33,947 bases of DNA from an uncultured bacterium (GTDB lineage: Bacteria; Hydrogenedentota; Hydrogenedentia; Hydrogenedentales; JAEUWI01): contig CAXBPH010000046.1 of NCBI GenBank assembly GCA_963977445.1, forward strand, positions 1 to 33,947, written 5' to 3'. Below the pieces are notes generated by a model. It was not told where the DNA came from, did no database searches, and worked only from the letters and a program-made list of their open reading frames with translations. The translations under genes were made by a program, and so were the position numbers. The first letter of the stretch is position 1; each line of letters opens with the position of its first letter. This document shows positions 2,381 to 32,769 of the stretch, in pieces.

Positions 2381-5300
2381 CTATCGCACCCGCAACGTAA
2401 AGCGTTTCATCTGGTAGATTACGCGGCCGTCCACGATGAGGAAGCCGTCGGCGTGGATCAGGCGTTGTTCATCATCCACGGACGTCACCACGGCATCCAC
2501 CGTTACGCGCTCATCGCTCGGGATGATTTGTCCGCGATAGACCCACTCGTGTTCCTGGCCCAGGGCGAGGGTTTCGAAGACCGTGTTTTCATCGACACCC
2601 CAACGCTCTTTCGCGACGATTTTCAACAGCTGCACAAAGGACTCCAGTCCCAGGGAACCGGGGCAAACGGGGTCTTGATAGAAGTGGGCCTTGAAGAACC
2701 ACGTGTCCGGCGTGACCGCCATGGTGCCCCGGATGAATCCGAGCCCATTGGGTCCGCCCTTGGGGTCAAAGACGCTGACTTCATCGACCATGCCCCATTC
2801 GCGATCGGGGAACGGCGCGGTATCGGGATAGGGGAAGGGCGCGTTGCAGGCGCACTCGCCATCGGTGGGTTCATACAACACCGCTTCGCGGATGCCCACC
2901 TGGTCGGCCAGGGCTTGCTGGGAGAAGAAACCGAAATAGGTGGTGCCTTCATAGATGCACCCGCCAGCGCCGTGGACCGCCATATGGTAGTGCTGGATAA
3001 TCATACCGCCGGAATTGGAGACGGCCGTCATTTTTACCTGCACGGTGATGGTGCCGGTGTTGTTGGTAACCGGCAAATGCTGGATGGCCTTGCCACCGAG
3101 GTTACGGAACTTGAGGTCCACGTCGCTCGTGAGGGCGGAGCCGCAATAGGCCGCGAGCCAGCCGCAGGGCTGGAGGGCCACTTCGAGCAGCACAGCGAAG
3201 GGCATCTCGGGCTGGCGGTTCGCGGCGAAGTACCACTCGTCGGCGGGGATATCGTATTGGGCCTCTACCGTCGCCCCGGCTTCGAGCACGAAGGGCTCGC
3301 CCGTGACTGCGGTTACGCGATCGAGAAACTGATAGGGCGGCTGGGGCAGACGGGCGATTTTGCGGGGTTGGCCTTCATCGAAAATGGCATAGGGCGCGCC
3401 GAAACCTTCGGAGGGATTCCCCTGGGAGTAGGCGAGGATCTTGTTGTAGTCATAGACGGCGGGCTTGGGCTGGCCGAGCTTGGGGGCAGCACCATCCCAC
3501 AGGGCTTCGAGGGCTTCGCGGGTCTGACCCTGCAGTTGGATGGCCATGTTGCCAATATCCACTATGGCCTTGCCATCGGCATACATGCGGGCATCGGCGA
3601 TAGCATAGGGCTGGGGACCATAGCCGAGCTCTTTGATGTTGACCTCGTAGGTAACCTTTTTCGTCGTCTCCAACACCTGACCGCGACACTTGAGCTTACC
3701 GGTAACGCCGGGACGGGGTTCCCAATAGGCCGTGTCCGCTTCGGCGACCCAGCCCATGCGCATGAGGTAAATGCGGAGGGTATGGAGGCAGCATTCAAAC
3801 ATGAGGGTGCCGGGCATGACCTTGTCGTCGACAAAATGGCAGGTAATAAACCAGTCATCGGGATGGATATCGGCCTCGGCCACGATTTTGCCCAGACCAT
3901 AGCGGCCACCGCCGGGGGTCAATTCCAGAACGCGGTGGACGAGATTCATTTTGCCATCGGGGATACGGACGGGATTCTGCAGGCCGAGCCCCTGGAATGC
4001 GTTGCCGAAACAGCCGACCAGGTCACCGACGCGAAGGGCGTTTACCTGGGCGTCGTTGTATTGAGCCGGGGCCATCGCTACCAAGTCGCGCCAGTCATCG
4101 GCACGGGTGCCGTGATTGTTTTGCAGGTCCAGGCGCGAGTCGACGACACCCTGCCCAGCGGCCAGGTCGGCGTCGGTGAAGAATCCCGCACAGCCGTTGC
4201 GCATGGTGAGCAGGGGCTTCCCATCTACCGTGGCATCAAAATAGAACTTGAAGAACCAGGGGTTGCCATGGCGGAAAAAATGTTCGATGTGGATGTCGTA
4301 GCGAATCACCTGACCCGCCACAGGGGTGTGATCGTGGAAGGTAACCTCCGCGTCGAGGAGGCGATACATGGCGTGGCCCTTGGTTTCGAAATCGATGCCA
4401 AGATAGGCAGAGAGAAAGAGATCGGCCTGACCGGCTTCCACCGCGACACACGTGGGAATGTGGCCCCCGTCGAGATACCAGCCATTGGGTAATACGTCGT
4501 GTTCCGTAACCACGCGGCCTGCGCCCATGGAGCGGGGCGTGCCTTCGAGCGCGGTGATGCGGTCCACGAGCATGAGGGGTTCGTCGGGAAGGCGCACGCG
4601 GGTCGGGTGATTGTCTATTTCGGCAAAGTCGGGGCCAAGCATCTTACCGATCGTGCCAATGGCAAATTCCATGCACTGGTCCCGATCGAATACCACGTCG
4701 CTACGGGCGGGCGTCTGGGGCGGAGACGTTGGCGTTGGGGTTGGGATTGGCAGTTCCATGGTGGCACCGGGCGCGGCGAGCAACTGCATCTGCCAGGAAA
4801 TTCCCTCGGCCAGCGTACCTTGCATGAGATCGGCAAAGGCCAGGTATTGGGCATGGGCGGCGGCCGTCGCGGCTTCGGCCTGGACCATGCCATCGAGCAA
4901 GGGCGATGCACTCGCGGCGATGGGCTGTAAGCCTTGGGGCATTTCGGCAGCGCGCGGTATCGTCCTTGGCGCAGGTTGGGCCGTCGTGTATGCAGGCGCA
5001 TTTCTCGGTGCAGTGTCTCTGCTGTCTCTGTTGTCCCTGCCGTCTTTCAAAACTCGGGCACTGTCGCGACGGGCTTCGGCCAGAACCGGCTCGGGTTTAC
5101 GGGCTCTCGGCACCTCGAAAGGATCACCGCCTACTTGTACACGAACCACGGGCTTGTCCGCATCGGACGTTGAGTTTACGGAAACCTCATGTCCATAAAG
5201 GGCTTCCAGATTCACCGGAATACCTTCGGCAATGAGGTGGCCGAGGGTGCGCAACACGAGCGAAGTGGCGTCCTGCCCTTTGTAACAGACGGCGCGGGCG

Positions 5301-9404: not shown

Positions 9405-12400
9405 CTATTTTTTGGTCAGCGCCGGTTTTTCCAGGGTGTTGTTTTGAAAGGCCGCTTTCAGCGATGCGACCAACGTGCATTCGTAGCCATCGATGCGGGC
9501 GATCAGGTCACCCTTGACCCGATCGACAAACTCGATGTTGGCCGTGGCCTTCCGTTTGTTGTGTTCCATCACCTGAATCAGAATGCGTGCCCCTTCTTTG
9601 GGGAAGCGGTTTACATACTGACGGTATTGGCCGACGAAACTGGGGAGGCTTCCCACGCCGTAGTGCTGGAAACTCCAGAGGATCATCATCTGGAAGCTGC
9701 TGTCGAGAATAAGGGGATCGGCCAGCCAGCTGTTGCGCAGGGGCGCGTCGATCCAGTTCTTTGGCGCAGGCGCTTTGCCTACGAGTGCTACGAGAATGTC
9801 ATCGGAAGCACCATCGACCGCGTCGAGTCCCTGGAAGGCGGGGCCGTGGAAGAGATGGCCGCCGTCATAGAGACCGCCGTTGTTGTAGGCCTTTTCCTTC
9901 AAACCTTCGGGCTGAATCCAGGGCATCTCCGATGGGAGGGTTTCCACCAGATTGACCTCGGCGGACGCATGGCGAATTTCTTTGTCTCCCGTCGGGTTGC
10001 TGCGCAGCTCCACGGGAATCCAGAGGCCGCCATCGCGCTCAATCACGTCACCGGAGCAGAGTTGTACCGTGCGGCTTTCGTCGGCATCGAGGGTGACGCC
10101 TTTCAAGACCCGCAAGCCATCGAGGCCGTGGAAACGAAGGCCGGGGTGGGCATGGAGTGCCGTGTGGGCGAACCATTCCGTAATCATGGCCACGGGTAAC
10201 ACGGCCTTGTGGTTCAATACGTGGGAGGCCAGGAAAGGGAAGGCATCCACATTCAAGTCGATATCAATGAGGGGGGGGCATGTGGCCTTGGTGCTCGCGA
10301 CAATCGCCGGGGCCGTTTCGCGGACCACGGCGGTCATTTCCGGTATCTCTCCGCCCATGACCACGATCTCCACGGGGCGTTTTCCGCTCTGGGACAATTC
10401 GTTGACCACAAACTGGGCGCCGTCTTCCAGTCCGATGAGGCCGACGCCTTCGGACTTGAAGAGTTTGGCCAGATCGGGCGTGACCATGCCGCCAGCCCAG
10501 GGCCCCCAGTTAACCGCAATGACGCGGCAATTCTCGCGGGAGGTGGATTGCTGTTGGGCGGTCTTGTTCAGAATTTCATTGGCAGCAGCATAGTCGATCT
10601 GGCCTTTGCGACCGAAACGTCCGGTCGACGAGGAGAAAAGGACCATAAAGCGGACATCATCTTCGCGGGCCGCAGCGAGTAGTGCCTGGATGCCGTCTAT
10701 CTTCGTGCCATAGACTTCGTTGAATTGCGCCGACGTTTTGTCTTCAATGAGTCGGTCGGCCAGCACGCCTGCACCGTGAACGAGGCCTTTAACGGGGCCA
10801 TATTCATTGCGCACTTCGTCGAGAAGTTCGGTGACGGCATCGGCATCGCGAATATCGACGGCGAAATACTCGACCGTCGCACCAGCGGCTTCCATGGCTT
10901 CGATGTTGCGGAGTGCCGCGCGATTGCGTTCGATGGCGGAGAGGGCATCGCGGAGTTCCTTGGGTTTCATGGTGCCCGTGGCCTGTTGAAGCAGGGCGGC
11001 GCGAATTTCTTCTTCGGATTCCAGATTCTGGAGCCACCCTTGCTCGGGGGTGGGGGCATCGCTCCGCCCCAGCAGGACGAGGGTGGGTTTCCAGGCCTTG
11101 GCCATGGCGAGGGCCACCTCAGCCGTAACGCCACGGGCACCGCCGGTAACGACGACTACCTCATTCTCGGCAATCGGCGCGGTGCCTTCGCTGCTAAGTT
11201 CGAGGGGAGAAAGGCTTGGTGTACAGAGGCCGTCACGTGAGATGCCCACTTCCAGGGGGCTCTCACTCAGCAGAATATCGGTGAGTAGTGAAGGTGCCTT
11301 CTTCGTGTCGACTGCGATGTCGATGGCTTTGCAACGGACGCCGGGCCACTCGTGGTGGGCCGTTTTGATGAGTCCGGCCAAGCCACCCGCAACAGGATCG
11401 CCCTGGACACTGATGGTGCCGAATTTTCCGTCCAGCTGGGTGATGGACGCCACGAAAGATACCCGTTGGGCCTTCAGGGCGGTGCCACATTGCTGAAGCC
11501 AGGCGAAAGCCTTCGCAATAAAGAAGGGCGGGCAGCCCTCTTCCGGTGCGACCAGGACCAGTCCGGCCAGGGTCGGAGGGATGCTCTCGGCAATGGGGTC
11601 GTCGAGTCCTACAATTCGGGCAGCGTAATCTTTACCTTGAATCGCCTTCGCCAATTCGATGCAGAGCTCATTGCCGCCGTCGACAATTAAGACCGCTGCC
11701 GTGGGAGAAAATTTGAGGGCTTCGGAGTTTTTCCCATCATAGGGGGTCGTCGTGACGCCACGAAGTGACAGGGGATCGCCCAGAACTGTTGCGGCCGGAG
11801 CCGCAGACGTGACGGCGGCAGGTGCTGAGGGTACCTGCGTCGAGGGTGCCGGTGCCGGGGGTGTCGGGGCCGATACAGGAGCCGATGCACCCTGTCCCGC
11901 GATGTAAGCGACGATATCACCGAGGGTGTGAAACTGACCCAATTGATCGGGGCCAAATTCAGGAGCCTCCGGCAGTTTCTCTTTGAGCGCCGACAGTATT
12001 TCCACCCGTTTAATGGAGTCGATGCCCAAGTCCGCATCGAGGGACATGGTCAATTCCAGCATCTCGGTGGGATAACCCGTTTTGTCCGCGATGGTGGCGA
12101 GTAGGGCTGTTTCGATGGTGTTGGTATTCACTGCGCCGGTGGACGTCGCGGTCTTGGCGGGTGTCGTGGTCGTGTTCGTTTGTGCGGCGCTGGCCACACC
12201 AGCGTTTCCACTGGCGGCGATGTAGTCCACAATGTCGCCGAGGGTGTGGAACGTGCCCAACTGATCGGGTCCAAACTCGGGGGCTTCCGGCAGGGCTTCC
12301 TTGAGGGCGGAGAGGATTTCTACCCGTTTGATGGAATCGATGCCGAGGTCCGCGTCGAGAGACATGGTCAATTCCAGCATCTCTGTGGGATAGCCTGTTT

Positions 12401-15400: not shown

Positions 15401-16286
15401 GATCACCATCTCGTTCCGCATCACTCAGGCGTTTGAGAGCCACCATACCGAGGCCTTCGCCCAGGATAGTGCCATCGCCGCTCGCGTCGAAGGGTTTGGC
15501 GTTGCCCGTGGGGGAGAGTGCGGGCGTCTTGCTGAAACACATGAACATGAAAATGTCGTTGAAGGTATCTACACCGCCGCTGATGACGAGGTCGCTTTTT
15601 CCGGCCTGGAGTTCCAGCATGGCCAGATGCACGGCGCTCAGGGAACTGGCGCAGGCCGCGTCTACCACACAATTGGTGCCGCCGAGGTTCAGGTGTTTGG
15701 TGATGCGTCCGGCGACGACGTTGCCCAACAATCCCGGAAAAGAGGCTTCCTGCCAGGGAACATATTGCTCGGCCATGCGTTCGAGCACATCATCGACGGT
15801 GGCCTGATCGAGTCCGGCATCCTGGAGGGCTTGCCGCCATTTGGGATGGCCCAGACGGGCGCCGAGGGGGATGACCAGCTCAAGGGCACCTGTGACACCC
15901 ACGACCACACTGACGCGATCACGGTCGAAATCGGCATCGGGACCATAGCCCGCATCGCGCAGCGCCCGGTCGGCTGCGACCATACCCAGGAGCTGGGCCG
16001 TGTCGGTCGCTTCCAGGGCATTGGGGGGCATGCCATATTCGAGGGGGTTAAAGTCGATAGGTTCCAGGAAACCGCCGCGCTTACCATAAGTAAAGTCCGG
16101 CCGTTTCGGGTCGGCATCGTAATAGTCTTCGGGACGCCAATGGCTCTCGGGCGTTTCGATGATGGCATCGATGCCGTGTTTGATGTTGGCCCAGTAGGCC
16201 CCGAGGTGATTGGCCTTGGGGAAAAGGCAGCCCATACCGACGATAGCGATGTCGGCAGGCGTTTGGGATGACGAGGGTTTGCTCAC
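9405..16286 (-). CDS. pfaA: PfaA-type iterative PUFA synthase subunit: KS - MAT - 4xACP - KR - PKS-type DH
   Basis: 2293 aa. DAACASS/EAHGTGT/IGHTK; GHSYG and AFHS; four LGIDSIKRVEIL; TGGARGV, HGAGVLAD, YAAAN; HVLNHKAVLP. GTG start overlaps the pfaD TGA (GTGA at 16283-16286). Confidence 0.95.
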   Translation of the reverse strand: MSKPSSSQTPADIAIVGMGCLFPKANHLGAYWANIKHGIDAIIETPESHWRPEDYYDADPKRPDFTYGKRGGFLEPIDFNPLEYGMPPNALEATDTAQLLGMVAADRALRDAGYGPDADFDRDRVSVVVGVTGALELVIPLGARLGHPKWRQALQDAGLDQATVDDVLERMAEQYVPWQEASFPGLLGNVVAGRITKHLNLGGTNCVVDAACASSLSAVHLAMLELQAGKSDLVISGGVDTFNDIFMFMCFSKTPALSPTGNAKPFDASGDGTILGEGLGMVALKRLSDAERDGDRVYAVLKGIGSSSDGKGDAIYAPSAKGQVKALKRAYEQANFDPRTIELVEAHGTGTAKGDAVEVNALTEVYGSATDGAWCAIGSVKSQIGHTKAASGAAALIKATLALYNKVLPPTIKITEPLGPLKAADSAFYANTKLRPWLSREGHPRRAAVSALGFGGSNFHAVLEEYGSTKAAPDWAGTAEILSFSADTPEALQRQVAEAPQWEGWSAIRLKAIELREAFDSAAPCRVTLVVEQGADLAKLVGQALSTLKSKSGEAAWSLPTGVYYGSGTTPGKLAFLFPGQGTQYVGMLGDLACQFPEFLQVLHNANEVFDGTPRLSDLIYPHPAFGAEAEGQQLKNLTATPVAPSAIGAVSAGALHVVKGFGIEADAIAGHSYGEIVGLLASGKISESDFHRLSKLRGALMGQGEGDKGSMMAVRAQEDAVEAVIAEAKLDVIIANKNAPEQMVLSGGTDAIAHADTVFSEKGIQTKVLPVAAAFHSEYVSHVAAPFLEALQGMELADGDVTLYSNTTATAYPTDGDTIRSLVAEQLAKPVSFVAQIQQMYEDGVRTFLEVGPGSRMSGLVDAILGDQPHHCVAIDGSNGKRNGILDLGRALAELSALGYGVELHAWNLNGPMDPEALKPKAKLLVPICGANHVSPRPRKAKAAPRPILAPASNPSPAPVAMQKHESTKTSTASVATTMPTGAAQIAQEHLVALQRMQQQTADLHRQFLEGQQATLETFKGLLNQQQQLLAGQPLTPMAVAPAPVAQAAPSVVAAIPETHGTNETATTASLQTPPAVQSAPATDTSAIETTLLATIAEKTGYPTEMLELGMSLDADLGIDSIKRVEILSALKEALPEAPEFGPDQLGTFHTLGDIVDYIAVNGSFDATAVAAPQASASATTDAIEAALLATIAEKTGYPTEMLELGMSLDADLGIDSIKRVEILSALKEALPEAPEFGPDQLGTFHTLGDIVEYIAANGNFGANSPVQSNTANASTGTVNTDAIETALLATIADKTGYPTEMLELTMSLDADLGIDSIKRVEILSALKEALPEAPEFGPDQLGTFHTLGDIVDYIAASGNAGVASAAQTNTTTTPAKTATSTGAVNTNTIETALLATIADKTGYPTEMLELTMSLDADLGIDSIKRVEILSALKEKLPEAPEFGPDQLGQFHTLGDIVAYIAGQGASAPVSAPTPPAPAPSTQVPSAPAAVTSAAPAATVLGDPLSLRGVTTTPYDGKNSEALKFSPTAAVLIVDGGNELCIELAKAIQGKDYAARIVGLDDPIAESIPPTLAGLVLVAPEEGCPPFFIAKAFAWLQQCGTALKAQRVSFVASITQLDGKFGTISVQGDPVAGGLAGLIKTAHHEWPGVRCKAIDIAVDTKKAPSLLTDILLSESPLEVGISRDGLCTPSLSPLELSSEGTAPIAENEVVVVTGGARGVTAEVALAMAKAWKPTLVLLGRSDAPTPEQGWLQNLESEEEIRAALLQQATGTMKPKELRDALSAIERNRAALRNIEAMEAAGATVEYFAVDIRDADAVTELLDEVRNEYGPVKGLVHGAGVLADRLIEDKTSAQFNEVYGTKIDGIQALLAAAREDDVRFMVLFSSSTGRFGRKGQIDYAAANEILNKTAQQQSTSRENCRVIAVNWGPWAGGMVTPDLAKLFKSEGVGLIGLEDGAQFVVNELSQSGKRPVEIVVMGGEIPEMTAVVRETAPAIVASTKATCPPLIDIDLNVDAFPFLASHVLNHKAVLPVAMITEWFAHTALHAHPGLRFHGLDGLRVLKGVTLDADESRTVQLCSGDVIERDGGLWIPVELRSNPTGDKEIRHASAEVNLVETLPSEMPWIQPEGLKEKAYNNGGLYDGGHLFHGPAFQGLDAVDGASDDILVALVGKAPAPKNWIDAPLRNSWLADPLILDSSFQMMILWSFQHYGVGSLPSFVGQYRQYVNRFPKEGARILIQVMEHNKRKATANIEFVDRVKGDLIARIDGYECTLVASLKAAFQNNTLEKPALTKK
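11905..13025 (-). repeat. Four tandem, near-identical ACP domains inside pfaA
   Basis: IE(T/A)xLLATIA(E/D)KTGYPTEMLEL...LGIDSIKRVEILSALKE...FHTLGDIV repeated four times with Ala/Thr-rich linkers. Boundaries approximate. Confidence 0.93.
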
Positions 16287-17941
16287 CGGATGAATTCCTC
16301 CAATTGGGGACGTTCCAGGGGGAGATAGTTACTACAGGCCGGGGGCACCGCAATGCCCTGGCTGGAGAGTGTCGTGCTTCGGGTTACTACCGCTGCGCCG
16401 TGCAGAATATTCAGGGCGACAAGGGCAACTTCACGCTTTTCCGGGGCTTCGAGAAAGGTGCCGCGCACCCATTCATTAAAAGCACCCATGGCCGGGCCGC
16501 ACCAGACCTGAAAGTCGATTTTGCGGTCGGGAATACCCCGGTTGGCCCAAATGGAGGCCTGACCAAGGTAAGAGCGAAATAGGAGGGCCATTTTATGTTT
16601 AGGGTCTTGTTCCGCGCGGACAATCTGTTTGGGATCGCGCTGCTGGAAGAAGGCCTTGGTTTCTTCCCAAATCTGGGTCAAGGGAGCCCGAAAAAGCTGT
16701 TTTTCCAACTTGGCGCGCTCTTCGGCGGGAATTTCGTCGATATTCTTGTGGAGACGATAGAGCTCGAAGAGTCGGGCACCGCGCATGCTAAACATGGTCC
16801 CCCGTTTAAGGACCTGGACATCTACGCCCATTTCAAACATATCGGCGGCCGGGGCCATGGCGGTATCGGCCTGTCCCGCTTCGGCCAGCATCTGGCGGAC
16901 CACGTCCGAGGAGCCACTTTCCACGCAGGCCTGGTTCACCGAGCCCGTAACGATATAGGCGGCTCCCATGGCGAAGGCGGCCGCGGCGGAGGCGGGGGTG
17001 GAGATGCCACCGGCCAGGCCGACACGGGGTGCCGTGGAGTAATTGAATTTTTCTTGCATACGATTCCGCAGGGCAATAATCGTCGGGAGCAGGGCGATGG
17101 CGGGTCGGTTGTCCGTGTGGCCGCCCGAGTCCGCCTCGGCCGTGATGTCGTCGGCCATGGGGATGCGCATGGCCAGCTCGGCCTGGGCTTCCGTCAACTC
17201 TCCGTTGGCCACAAGGGGCTCCAGAAAGCGGGCCGGTGGTGGCGACAAGAACTTTTCGGCCACTTCGACGCGGGATACCTTGGCGATGACCCGATTGGGG
17301 ACGACAACCGTGCCGTCGGCGTCTTCATGGATGCCGTGAACGCGGTATTTTACGATGGCAGGCGTAAGATCAAGATAGGCCGACGCTTCCACGAGATGAA
17401 CGTCTCGTTGAATCAGCAAGGACGCCACCGCACCTTCCAGCGCTTGTTCGTTGGGACTGTGGATGAGATTGACGCCGAAGGGCCGATCACCGAGGCTTTT
17501 CTGAAGGCGATCCAGGGCCTGTTCCACCCGATCGAGGGCCAGGCCCGCCGCACCGAAGATACCCAGGAGGCCTTCCTTCGCCAGCGCTTCGACCAGTTCT
17601 TCCGAGGCAATCCCATTGGCCATGGCACCACCATAATAGGCGAATTTTACCCCGTGGTCCCGGCAGAAGGTCGCATCGCCCAGATTGGCGGCATGACAGG
17701 GGAGACCAAGGGCTACAACGGGCCGGGAATCGCTGTCTGCGCTTCCATTAGGAAGGTTGCGGCTGGCGGCCAGGGTCCTGTCGGCCCTCTGGACGATAGC
17801 GAAGGGCGTGGCCGTTTCCTGGAGCAATTGGGTGAATGCCTCGCCATTGAGGGGGATAAACGGGTGGTCGGCGGGCACACTTCCCCATAGGGAGCGGGCC
17901 AGGGGCGAGTCAATTGATTTGTCCGGGCTGAGCAACGGCAT
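16283..17941 (-). CDS. pfaD: PfaD, FMN-dependent trans-enoyl-ACP reductase (FabK/NMO fold)
   Basis: GAMANGIAS, VEASAY, EADSGGHTD, APAADMFEMG, QVWCGPAMGAFN. ATG at 17941 with AGGA upstream preferred over the track's GTG at 17968. Confidence 0.95.
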   Translation of the reverse strand: MPLLSPDKSIDSPLARSLWGSVPADHPFIPLNGEAFTQLLQETATPFAIVQRADRTLAASRNLPNGSADSDSRPVVALGLPCHAANLGDATFCRDHGVKFAYYGGAMANGIASEELVEALAKEGLLGIFGAAGLALDRVEQALDRLQKSLGDRPFGVNLIHSPNEQALEGAVASLLIQRDVHLVEASAYLDLTPAIVKYRVHGIHEDADGTVVVPNRVIAKVSRVEVAEKFLSPPPARFLEPLVANGELTEAQAELAMRIPMADDITAEADSGGHTDNRPAIALLPTIIALRNRMQEKFNYSTAPRVGLAGGISTPASAAAAFAMGAAYIVTGSVNQACVESGSSDVVRQMLAEAGQADTAMAPAADMFEMGVDVQVLKRGTMFSMRGARLFELYRLHKNIDEIPAEERAKLEKQLFRAPLTQIWEETKAFFQQRDPKQIVRAEQDPKHKMALLFRSYLGQASIWANRGIPDRKIDFQVWCGPAMGAFNEWVRGTFLEAPEKREVALVALNILHGAAVVTRSTTLSSQGIAVPPACSNYLPLERPQLEEFIR

Positions 17942-18238
17942 GCAGCAATTCCTGCAGGTAAGTCGCACGGTTTGTGCGATGTAACTATCTGTAAATAAAT
18001 CGGTTAGGTCTGATGGTGGGGCGTGCCCCGGCGTGGTGGTGTGCCCCGTATTTTTCGTGGGGTCTATCGGCGCAAATTTCCGCCTCGCGTGTCGCTACGC
18101 CGTCCGTGCCTAAAAGACCTCCATGATAGCATTGAACGGCGTAAGAAGGCCAATCGCATGGGCTTGCGCATAGGCACCCATGCGAAGGGATGGTGTCTCG
18201 CTCCTATGAGCAAAAGGGTGCGGCACGGTGTCGTGCCG

Positions 18239-18596
18239 GGGACTGCACCGACCGAGCCATGTCGTGGAGCAGGTAGATTGGTGGTGTGCCAAAGACGAAG
18301 GGACCAAGGGACGTGAACGTTAATCGTCGGGGCCGTCCCCCTGAGTGGGAATTCCCCTTGAGTGCGATTACCCTCCGCGGACAGCCCCGACCAGCCACCA
18401 CGCCCTACATACCCCCAATCGCCTTGGCACCAAGACGTCGCCCCCGCCCATCACGTTATTCGGGTCGGTACAGTCCCGTGTGACGACCTTCAGGGGGAAC
18501 AGCCCCGACCAGCAACGACACTCACTATGCCCACGTTTTCCATGGCAAAAAAACATCATTGCCTTGCCATTACATTCCCGAGGTCGGCGCAGTCCC
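18239..18596. repeat. Three ~100-bp units bounded by inverted 14-bp motifs (18239-18339, 18378-18477, 18496-18596)
   Basis: Six copies of GGGAC(A/T/G)GNNCCGAC in alternating orientation with inner gaps of 73, 72 and 73 bp. Interiors are weakly homologous. Confidence 0.75.
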
Positions 18597-18838
18597 CGCG
18601 CCGGGGCTGTTTTTTCCGAGGGCTGCCCAATACGGGAAATGTTGCGGGGCGCGGTTACCAAATAAACCACGTCCTTGAAATAGTCCCCCAGTTCGAAGTC
18701 GTTCATGATAGACTAGTTACAGATATGTTAAATCACTCGCGGTGCCACACTCAGCAGAGGATGGGCCGCAGCGTATTCGGGCAAGGTGCGAATCAAGTTG
18801 TACGATCTGCGCCCGATCACCCATCGAGGTTCACGTTT

Positions 18839-20326
18839 ATGAACGCCAATGAACCGGGGCACAATATGCCAACACCCAAAGGGGTGGAGGCCGAGGAGAC
18901 CGAGACATTACGCCTTCGTGTTTCAAAAGACATGATGCGCGTTTTGGTAGACTGTTCGCTCGACGGCAAAGATTTCGAGGAAATCGCGGGGGTGATCGTC
19001 TCAAAACTTCGATCTTTTGGAATTGCCAAGCCTCCGACGCACAACGTGGTGGTCCAATGGTTGTGTGACCAGGCCCGCATGGGGGGCGTGCTGGAAGGGG
19101 CCGTACTCGTCGAAGGGGTGCCTCTTGTTCCGCCGGTGGATGGAGTAATCGATTGGGCGGGAGACTTTTTCAATCAAGGGTTCGTGTTGGATGAGAGCAG
19201 TGATCGCGTTGATTTTCGAAATCACGCCGGCCAGCGCAATGTGAAACGTGAACAATTGCTCGCCACCATTGTGGCACCTCAGAAGGGGAAGAATGGCCGG
19301 GATGTGCGGGGCCAGATAATTCGCGCGCGGAAACCGAAGCTGCCAAAAATTCGGTTGGGGTGTAATGTGCGTGTCGATGAAGGCAGCAGCACCTATTACA
19401 GTGAAATTGATGGGCGCATCCGTTGGCACAGGAATTTCCTGTCGGTCGATGAACGATTTGAAATTGAAGGTGATGTGGGACTGGATACGGGCAATATTTC
19501 CCACTCAGGTTCGGTCATCGTGCATCGTGATGTTCTCGAAGGAGCCCGGTTAGAAGCCATCGGGGATATCGAGGTTTTTGGTGTCGTCGAATCTGCCCAC
19601 GTGCAGACCGGCGGCAGCCTGGTAGTTCATGGCGGTATCACGGGTGCTGTGGGCTCCCATATCATCGCTGCCGGTGGCGTGTCCGCCCTCTACATTATTG
19701 ATGCGAACGTACAGGCCGGCGAAGATGTTGTTGTCGATAGGGAGATCGTTCAATCTACGGTACAGACCCGGGGAGCCATCTATATGCCACGAGGTCGGGT
19801 TGTTGGGGGGCAGCTTGTCGCGCTCGGCGGCATTGATGTGGGCCAGGTGGGATCGGCGGCATCGGTGCCCACCGAAGTAATTGCCGGCGAAGACTATTGT
19901 CTCGAGGGGCAGTTGCTGTCGGTGCGTACCCGCACGAAGCGAACCGCGGCGAATGTGGAAAAAATTCATGCGACGCTGGAGCCGCTGCGCGGTAAGGTTT
20001 CGGCCCTCTCCGACGAGAAGAAAGCAGTGGTAACAAAGCTCCTGGAGCAGGTCAATATGATGGAGGCCTCATTGCGGGCTCTCGCGGGTGAAGAGGACGA
20101 ACTCAGGCGAGAAACCCAGGAACGAGAGAACCACACCGTGCTGATTCGAAATACACTTTTTTCGGACAGTCGAATCGGTGCTCACGGCGAGATGTTTGTG
20201 GCCAAAGAAACCCACAAGGGACCTGTCTCTCCCGTCAAGTCGCCTGACGGGCTCCGTATGCAGGTGACCCGACGCAAATCGATTGAGAAGGTGACGGGGG
20301 AGGAGGCCCAGGGGACCACGACCTGA
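18839..20326 (+). CDS. FapA / DUF342 family protein
   Basis: PPVDG, VDFRN, GKNGRDVRG, GDVGLDTGNI, GDIEVFGVVE beta-helix-like repeats and a C-terminal coiled coil. Start re-called at ATG 18839 (GAGGT RBS); 18866 is an alternative. The 18362 extension is not protein-like. Confidence 0.8.
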   Translation: MNANEPGHNMPTPKGVEAEETETLRLRVSKDMMRVLVDCSLDGKDFEEIAGVIVSKLRSFGIAKPPTHNVVVQWLCDQARMGGVLEGAVLVEGVPLVPPVDGVIDWAGDFFNQGFVLDESSDRVDFRNHAGQRNVKREQLLATIVAPQKGKNGRDVRGQIIRARKPKLPKIRLGCNVRVDEGSSTYYSEIDGRIRWHRNFLSVDERFEIEGDVGLDTGNISHSGSVIVHRDVLEGARLEAIGDIEVFGVVESAHVQTGGSLVVHGGITGAVGSHIIAAGGVSALYIIDANVQAGEDVVVDREIVQSTVQTRGAIYMPRGRVVGGQLVALGGIDVGQVGSAASVPTEVIAGEDYCLEGQLLSVRTRTKRTAANVEKIHATLEPLRGKVSALSDEKKAVVTKLLEQVNMMEASLRALAGEEDELRRETQERENHTVLIRNTLFSDSRIGAHGEMFVAKETHKGPVSPVKSPDGLRMQVTRRKSIEKVTGEEAQGTTT

Positions 20327-32430: not shown

Positions 32431-32769
32431 TTATGGGACTCAGATATTTCTGTCTGAGAAAGGAATGAGCAAGGTGGAGAATAGCTCGGGTTCGTGGCAA
32501 GAAGGCCTGTATTTTTAACGTGGCTATTTTGTGGATTTGCGGTGTGTTGTGCCGGTTCGTCGGGCCCTTGGGTGTTTGCGTGGGCTTATGGGACTCAGAC
32601 ATTCCTGTCTGAGAAAGGGTTGGTCAAGGTCGTGAAGCGCTCGGATTCGTGGCAAGAAGGCCTGTATTTTTAACGTGGCGACTTTGTGGATTTGCAGAAT
32701 GATGTGGCGGTTCATCGGGCCCTTGGGTGTTTGCGTGGGCGTTGTCTCAGACAGGAATGTCCGAGTCCC
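32431..32769. repeat. 155-bp tandem duplication (32431-32585, 32586-32740) with three 25-bp palindromic REPs
   Basis: REP gggactcaga(c/t)att(c/t)ctgtctgaga at 32435 and 32590 (direct) and 32745 (inverted). Units share long identical blocks such as ttcgtggcaagaaggcctgtatttttaacgtggc. Confidence 0.9.

Follow-up and report, generated by a model that had tools for sequence, protein, structure and literature searches.

According to the published descriptions, REPINs have inverted conserved ends at a fixed distance from each other and a less conserved spacer, are extragenic and flank a transposase gene (PMC3116915). In the TIRYTs, or TIRtrons, genes for RAYT-like proteins (REP-associated tyrosine transposases) are flanked by terminal inverted repeats (TIRs), which form moderately abundant families found in dimers and clusters (PMC3733652), and these TIRYTs constitute subclass 2.1 of TnpA_Y1 (PMC6006769). 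A GTAG (or CGTC) tag marks one end of a REP (PMC3733652). The stretch of DNA analysed here, referred to as the window, is contig C46 (33,947 bp) of a 7.1-Mb assembly from an uncultured Hydrogenedentota bacterium (G000; 464 contigs, 94% complete), and it carries an array of three repeat units upstream of a pfa-ole gene cluster. These units are most probably copies of a dispersed REPIN-like, TIR-type miniature family that is tied to a clade of RAYT-type transposases and constitutes selfish mobile DNA. The element is approximately 101 bp in length, or approximately 110 bp with a conserved flank on one side. It is a polar, multicopy and extragenic repeat that is spread over four species of one genus and is linked to a Y1 transposase gene in two sister genomes. 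No literature on REPIN, RAYT, TIRYT or repetitive extragenic sequences in Hydrogenedentes or Hydrogenedentota was present among the matches listed.

Each unit is composed of one GGGACRGCCCCGAC end (A), one GGGACTGCACCGAC end (B; also given as GGGACTGYRCCGAC) and a highly variable interior. This organization resembles the REPIN-RAYT system of Pseudomonas fluorescens SBW25, where short inverted sequences have a start spacing of 71 bp versus the 86–89 bp observed here. Shared with that system are a variable spacer, ends that pair in single-stranded DNA, an extragenic location as solo copies or ordered clusters, and a gene for a Y1 HUH transposase flanked by the same elements, in this case in the sister genomes (PMC3116915). 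Unlike the SBW25 REPINs, the 14-mers described here are non-palindromic and lack a GTAG tag, the hairpin does not continue into the interior, the ends are unlike each other at two fixed positions and the interiors are far more diverse. The transposase complement is also unlike that of SBW25: eight of the nine genomes in this genus have two to six paralogues each, most of them with variant ends of their own. With regard to the TIRYTs, the A-end variant GGGGACAG fits the motif GGGGWSAS exactly and the gene-proximal B-end GGGGACTG fits it at seven of eight positions (PMC3733652). Unlike the TIRYTs of subclass 2.1, the enzymes of this clade have no detected C-terminal helix-turn-helix (HTH) domain, the number of units per genome (79–161) is high, and what is repeated is a unit with two ends and a fixed length, not a single TIR. 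The arrays also recall the BIMEs of Escherichia coli, which feature alternating orientation, two kinds of unit end and fixed linkers (in part after PMC6006769). The REPs of E. coli are different in being self-palindromes of 35–40 nt with a GTAG tag.

A dispersed repeat family with two ends

At no more than one mismatch, the 14-mer GGGACNGCNCCGAC is found exactly six times in the window, always within 18239–18596 and on alternating strands, at 18239(+), 18326(-), 18378(+), 18464(-), 18496(+) and 18583(-). The chance expectation is 0.42 matches (standard deviation 0.59, largest 2), and none of 100 dinucleotide shuffles reached six. A first-pass annotation made from the sequence had described six alternating 14-mers that form units of 101, 100 and 101 bp with gaps of 73, 72 and 73, and this description stands; similar matches are not produced by the shuffled controls. 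With two mismatches, 17 matches are found in the window against 6.9 expected, and the 11 additional ones are scattered and look like chance.

The motif is not confined to the window. In G000, 337 matches with at most one mismatch were found, against 100 when the genome is reversed, and a start spacing of 86–89 applies to 109 neighbouring plus/minus pairs. When two mismatches and a spacing of 84–91 are permitted, the genome holds 140 units, 120 of which have a canonical T..A end opposite an R..C end, and their orientations are balanced (71 versus 69). A two-ended pattern with three mismatches permitted gives 123 units, and its exact form gives 83 matches versus none for the reversed pattern. 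The true copy number is probably higher because many arrays lie at contig ends. The units occupy approximately 73 loci, comprising 39 solo copies, 20 doublets, five triplets (the window being one), five arrays of four units, three of five and one of six. Junctions within arrays are of preferred length, with 22–25 nt at 21 of the 31 A|A junctions and 2–3 nt at seven of the 12 B|B junctions. Alternating orientation is therefore the normal array pattern genome-wide, and the unit of the window that appears flipped is nothing special.

Alignment of 135 units by polarity gave 31 interior clusters at 55% identity, with unit lengths of 99–104 bp and ends that are nearly invariant, although detection required intact ends and is biased toward ends that look conserved. 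The combination of conserved length and ends with drifting interiors that was first noted for the three window units thus holds genome-wide. On the A side, an extra conserved flank (CCCTCRGG) lies next to the A-end; solo copies have it too, as do all three units of the window. On the B side the unit is followed by CG(G). Information profiles of the interiors show a weakly conserved central GCCA-type motif at a fixed distance. Copies with decayed ends were searched for by BLAST with interiors only, which gave 24 further places, approximately ten of them with one bad end; these are too few to gauge decay.

The A-end GGGACRGCCCCGAC and the B-end GTCGGTGCAGTCCC are near-complements and form a 14-bp stem with two fixed mismatches around an interior of 72–76 nt. 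Twelve of the 14 stem positions are Watson-Crick paired in at least 121 of 131 distinct units, while at positions 6 and 9 a mismatch is seen in 127 and 123 of them, respectively. Compensatory changes are found at stem positions 10, 12 and 13, and 103 of 135 units show the end-to-end stem in their DNA minimum-energy fold. Palindromes occur only at the B|B and A|A junctions of arrays. Target-site duplications of at least 4 bp showed no enrichment for any of the 20 boundary settings tried, and a search for longer elements whose outward-facing ends are the same found none, a combination which fits a Y1 rather than a DDE enzyme.

The units are located outside of genes. Only five of 135 units have more than half of their length within confident open reading frame (ORF) bodies, compared to 67% of random 101-bp segments, and 3.9% of unit bases fall in such bodies; these are ORF-based calls made without a gene finder, with a confident body defined as an ORF of at least 200 aa less its first 240 nt. 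A cruder test with all ORFs of at least 100 aa placed 68 of the 135 units more than half inside, and was rejected as misleading because short frames cross the repeats. The repeats themselves create open frames of 100–170 aa and false 5' gene extensions (18362–18839 in the window; C256:3–485; C343:2–532).

Among relatives, the family was searched for in 135 genomes of the phylum, which include nine of the genus (G000 among them) and 126 of other genera. Exact-end matches are limited to G000 (83), G065 (71) and G066 (91), all of one genus, with none for the reversed pattern and none in the 126 genomes of other genera. With three mismatches permitted, these three genomes contain 123, 127 and 161 units, respectively. 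G064 carries 79 units whose end variants co-vary (GGGACAGCCCCGCC paired with GGGACTGCCTCGCC), and the five other species of the genus hold 0–3 units each. In a scan of one genome per species, the exact two-ended pattern was found in Candidatus Hydrogenedentota bacterium records among the matches listed.

Y1 transposase genes linked to the repeats

In G066 (L115), a gene encoding a Y1 protein of 209 aa is located between full units whose B-ends point toward the gene. The same arrangement is observed in G064 (L117), where the Y1 gene product is 209–210 aa in length and the flanking full units bear the G064 variant ends, again with the B-ends toward the gene. A paralogue in G066 (L121) is flanked by units bearing a third, matching end variant. 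Of the nine genomes, G065 is the only one in which no member of this transposase clade was found. Inverted GTCCC / GGGAC-type repeats bracket ten of the 12 paralogues in the genus, with a GGGACTG or GGGACCG core in eight of these ten; of the remaining two, one is bracketed on one side only and one has no bracket. In most paralogues the distal parts of the two brackets covary, matching each other and differing between paralogues.

The Y1 proteins of the sister genomes contain the motifs NHVHLV and AYVEVNPVRAG and score 42–49 bits against the Pfam family Y1_Tnp (cut-off 23). Y1_Tnp was the only family identified by Pfam (E of at most 1) in the four proteins tested, with no match to Bac_DnaA_C, HTH_23 or HTH_28, and a C-terminal tail of approximately 70 aa has no Pfam assignment. 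The only solved structure matched by the enzyme is E. coli TnpA_REP (Protein Data Bank entry 4ER8), to which its HUH and Y-x3-NP motifs, the latter covering the region of the catalytic Tyr, align in a weak match (E 0.0047). The first-pass annotation had stated that no recombinase is encoded alongside the repeats, which is correct for the window, and the associated RAYT-type enzyme is seen only in sister genomes.

The G000 assembly contains 16 matches to Y1_Tnp (PF01797). The nearest homologues of the G066 enzyme are encoded on contigs C184 (58.6% identity) and C68 (53%) and are flanked by related variant ends. A tblastn search of G000 with the G066 and G064 enzymes returned only paralogues of no more than 59% identity and fragments on C363, C153 and C173. 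These frameshifted or fragmentary RAYT-type remains are located at C363:65–590, C153:14531–14668 and C173:3741–3866, the last one beside an array of four units. The flanks of the C184 homologue (L004, 700–2006) are segments of approximately 100 nt in direct and not inverted orientation that end in a B-like GCCGGTACAGTCCCC, and next to the gene, related units form a tandem array of 258 bp. G000 was also searched for a gene enclosed by two inward B-ends at a distance of 300–1500 bp, and the only sizeable insert (C147:176–1010) resembles a membrane methyltransferase, not a transposase, on by-eye reading of the sequence. The sequences TTACAGATA and CATGATAG, which are common to the two gene-proximal regions, show no genome-wide excess. 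A gene of 630 bp that is boxed in by repeats would easily be lost from short-read bins. Assembly gaps at repeats may explain the absence of the transposase gene from this assembly, and gene loss is an equally possible explanation.

Several of the Y1_Tnp matches in G000 lie beside unrelated repeat families of their own, with 10–50 copies. For at least four other Y1 genes these are inverted-repeat families of about 20–58 copies, with flanking repeats located at C11:31560–31840 and 32470–32720, C157:8340–8760 and 9590–9790, C435:1960–2160 and 2930–3104, and C48:15440–16000. The genome hosts many separate REPIN-like systems.

The array upstream of pfaD

The array is located in an 870-bp intergenic region between two divergent genes. 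On the minus strand, the first gene of the pfa-ole cluster (16283–17968) encodes a PfaD-like enoyl reductase with NMO and FabD_helical_ins domains, and it stands in a context of PfaA-like and PfaC-like synthases and an OleA-like thiolase. These domain matches bear out the pfa-ole context originally assigned to the locus. On the plus strand, a FapA-family gene is located at 18840–20326. The ORF that opens at GTG 18362 is a 5' over-extension of this gene because FapA_N starts at its residue 184, and the start was set at ATG 18840. The repeat stretch is non-coding, and a sigma-70 promoter scan of the region detected none.

The layout of the array can be written as B>73<A 38 A>72<B 18 A>73<B, where 73, 72 and 73 are the inner gaps in nt. 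Each unit is polar, with one GCCCCGAC-type end and one ACTGYRCCGAC-type end, and TGGCA is found at the same inner place in all three once they are oriented by their ends, so that unit 1 is simply an inverted copy. The polarity and the reversed landmarks of unit 1 proposed in the first-pass annotation are both supported by this placement. Unit 1 (18239–18339, minus strand, 101 bp), with ends set by motif search, has its B-end GGGACTGCACCGAC at 18239–18252 and its A-end (GTCGGGGCCGTCCC on the plus strand) at 18326–18339. By its interior it groups with 25 other units of G000 in subfamily cluster 7 (26 members). Immediately before this B-end is a small perfect hairpin, GGCACG-GTGT-CGTGCC, at 18222–18237. 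The 38-nt A|A junction that follows (18340–18377) is longer than the usual 22–25 nt and contains the A-side flank motifs of both neighbours, CCTGAGTG at 18340–18347 and ACCCTCCG at 18370–18377. Unit 2 (18378–18477, plus strand, 100 bp) has the A-end CGGACAGCCCCGAC and the B-end GTCGGTACAGTCCC, each with one mismatch to the consensus, and its interior forms a singleton cluster placed beside clusters 25 and 28. Unit 3 (18496–18596, plus strand, 101 bp) has the A-end GGAACAGCCCCGAC and the B-end GTCGGCGCAGTCCC, and its interior falls in cluster 25, which has 17 members.

The degenerate seventh motif previously noted at 18600 is a decayed A-type (GCCCCG-type) end on the minus strand (18600–18613), of which 18602–18611 pairs with 18498–18507. 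Either it is left over from a fourth unit or it gives unit 3 a second right end. With the B-end of that unit, the decayed motif forms three overlapping terminator-like hairpins with a T run (18584–18616, plus strand; predicted sites at 18584–18610), which might insulate the downstream FapA-family gene from upstream transcription.

The locus was compared to that of relatives through pfaD. The PfaD proteins of G066 and G065 are 87% identical to that of the window, and neither genome has a unit within 1.5 kb upstream of the gene. Units are also absent upstream of pfaD in G069, G062 and G063, and G064 has two units approximately 1.24 kb upstream. Intergenic homology to relatives is limited to a unique 55-nt block (18112–18167) located 143 nt upstream of the pfaD start, which is 89–91% identical and at the same distance in G066, G065 and G063 and ends 72 bp before unit 1. 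This block is a better candidate than the repeats for a promoter or leader element that controls the pfa-ole operon. In G065, the gene upstream of pfaD (L131, 3842 onward) encodes a prepilin-type N-terminus by eye and does not belong to the FapA family. The repeat array therefore marks a break in synteny, or possibly an assembly join.

Public sequencing runs were also searched for the site; five contain at most 12% of the sampled words, and four yielded short, low-depth contigs, none of which spans the array. No inversion joint is present in these contigs, which carries no weight at this depth, and neither do the parts without cover. A low-depth RNA-library contig of a related organism contains both flanks and skips 18224–18342 (unit 1), with eight other letters in its place, and it breaks inside the 18222–18237 hairpin. 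In a low-depth contig from another run a B-end begins right after 18202, and in a further low-depth public contig homology is lost at 18167. These contigs weakly suggest turnover at the array site, with mis-joining of contigs at repeats as an alternative.

The genes that neighbour the family elsewhere in G000 have no common theme. Of the 73 loci, 37 could not be classified, mostly owing to their position at contig ends, and the remaining 36 comprise 22 tandem, 8 convergent and 6 divergent intergenic regions, much like the background of 2296, 636 and 665. With respect to flanking genes, arrays lie downstream in 61 relations and upstream in 48. The 45 genes tested that are preceded by arrays, besides the two in the window, are mixed in function and 19 of them have no Pfam family. 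They include a CheB/CheR fusion, a CHASE kinase, an integrase, GDSL lipases, a cytochrome c, a GH38 mannosidase, a fumarase and a Ser/Thr kinase, and no polyketide or fatty-acid gene is among them.

Competing explanations and implications

If the units are indeed miniature elements mobilized by the linked clade, a RAYT-type transposase would spread and maintain them via single-stranded DNA intermediates, as proposed for REPINs, and would recognise the GGGACTG core together with the mismatched stem. The array upstream of pfaD would then be an accident of insertion or rearrangement with at most side effects on local transcription, such as those of the terminator-like hairpin at its right edge.

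Several observations weigh against this explanation. None of the 16 Y1_Tnp genes of G000 has canonical 14-mers within 1.5 kb and no cognate transposase gene was found in this genome, and G065, with its 127 units, has no homologue at an E value of 1e-20 or better. The sole NCBIfam match of the sister-genome enzymes, REP-associated tyrosine transposase (NF047646), scores 57–76 bits, short of the curated threshold (80). Interiors show no more folding than their shuffles do (z -0.29 and -0.26), in contrast to the long hairpins of Pseudomonas REPINs. The ends GGGACTGCACCGAC and GGGACGGCCCCGAC are not self-complementary, so that pairing occurs only between the two ends of a unit, and a GTAG tag is found at neither consensus end, with CGTC inside the complement of the A-end and not terminal. 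Few copies look young, as only five pairs of units on different contigs have interiors of at least 93% identity, and one of these pairs is a duplicated segment. The sole case of presence and absence comes from the low-depth contig of another organism described above. Lastly, near-invariant ends with scrambled interiors could also reflect selection by the host.

This last point leads to the possibility that the units are structural elements kept by the host in the manner of E. coli BIMEs, acting as sites for proteins or the nucleoid, as transcript-end hairpins or as insulators, with the transposase serving as a domesticated maintenance enzyme. The 99–104 bp length and the ends are retained across at least 67 diverged lineages in G000 and 77 in the sister genomes, and the fixed A|A and B|B junctions, the weak central GCCA at a fixed distance, the scarcity of young copies and the terminator-like hairpin are all in keeping with such a role. 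It is nonetheless unlikely, since five species of the genus hold 0–3 units and the cell thus does not need them, and units are missing from the orthologous pfaD region of the closest relatives. The balanced orientations, the mix of intergenic types that matches the background and the bias of intact-end detection toward apparent conservation also argue against host maintenance. A classical miniature inverted-repeat transposable element (MITE), descended from an insertion sequence of the DDE type whose transposase moves it in trans, would likewise have 14-bp TIRs, a length of approximately 100 bp and many extragenic copies. The absence of target-site duplications of at least 4 bp and of longer elements with the same outward-facing ends makes this very improbable, as does the fact that a Y1 HUH gene is the only one observed between these ends. 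Integron attC sites and CRISPR seem unlikely, since the units abut one another with neither cassettes nor spacers in between, and integrase and cas genes are absent from the vicinity.

The first-pass annotation had offered four candidates for the array, namely phased operator pairs, structured RNA modules, recombinase or inversion substrates and an old MITE family. The last of these comes closest, given at least 123 scattered extragenic units, and the genome scan found what had been named there as evidence against a functional role: a scattered REP/MITE-type family with no link to gene function. The operators and the RNA modules are unsupported. An array of structured RNA modules, or of site-specific invertase substrates with one unit flipped, would account for the compensatory changes in the terminal stems and for the inverted unit, and an RNA-library contig overlaps the region. 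However, interior folding, with z of about -0.3, is not in excess of that of shuffles, and an Rfam scan of 17900–18900 (E of at most 10) gave six weak matches at chance level, the best with 17.7 bits against a gathering score of 90, so that none is near that threshold. Orientation relative to genes is mixed (61 downstream, 48 upstream), alternation is the normal pattern of arrays and no invertase is encoded nearby, which leaves this pair of explanations highly improbable. Phased operator pairs or looping sites, with either the pfa-ole operon or the divergent FapA-family gene as their regulatory target, would suit the location in an 870-bp divergent intergenic region and the regular spacing of 100–101 bp. 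Such sites can be regarded as extremely improbable with units at approximately 73 loci, only six of the 36 classifiable ones divergent, as in the background, and the 47 array-preceded genes functionally unrelated, none of the 45 tested being a polyketide or fatty-acid gene. The two closest relatives, G066 and G065, also have pfaD with no units near it, and the conserved block at 18112–18167 lies outside of the units. A pfa-specific role for the units is not supported.

A more specific form of the mobile-element explanation is possible, though doubtful. Here, the transposase clade would recognise a composite 14-bp stem formed by the two non-palindromic ends of one unit, in which the obligatory mismatches at positions 6 and 9 (6 and 10 in the G064 variant) mark the strand, the loop measures approximately 73 nt with a central GCCA, and the enzyme gene is placed between two perfectly matching B-ends. 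If this were true, the enzyme would measure the length of the unit, and paralogue-specific stems would define separate co-evolving replicator lineages within one genome. The fixed mismatches, fixed length and paralogue-specific ends merit the attention of specialists.

With the units taken most probably as REPIN-like, TIR-type copies tied to the RAYT-type clade, the striking repeats upstream of the pfa-ole operon would not be its operator, and the conserved block at 18112–18167 is the place to seek its regulation. For annotation, this and several similar repeat families break the assemblies of these Hydrogenedentota genomes and are likely to produce phantom proteins in their automatic annotation. 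For the REPIN-RAYT field, a genus of an uncultured phylum with co-resident transposase paralogues, matching end variants, and species both with and without the repeats offers a natural comparison set.

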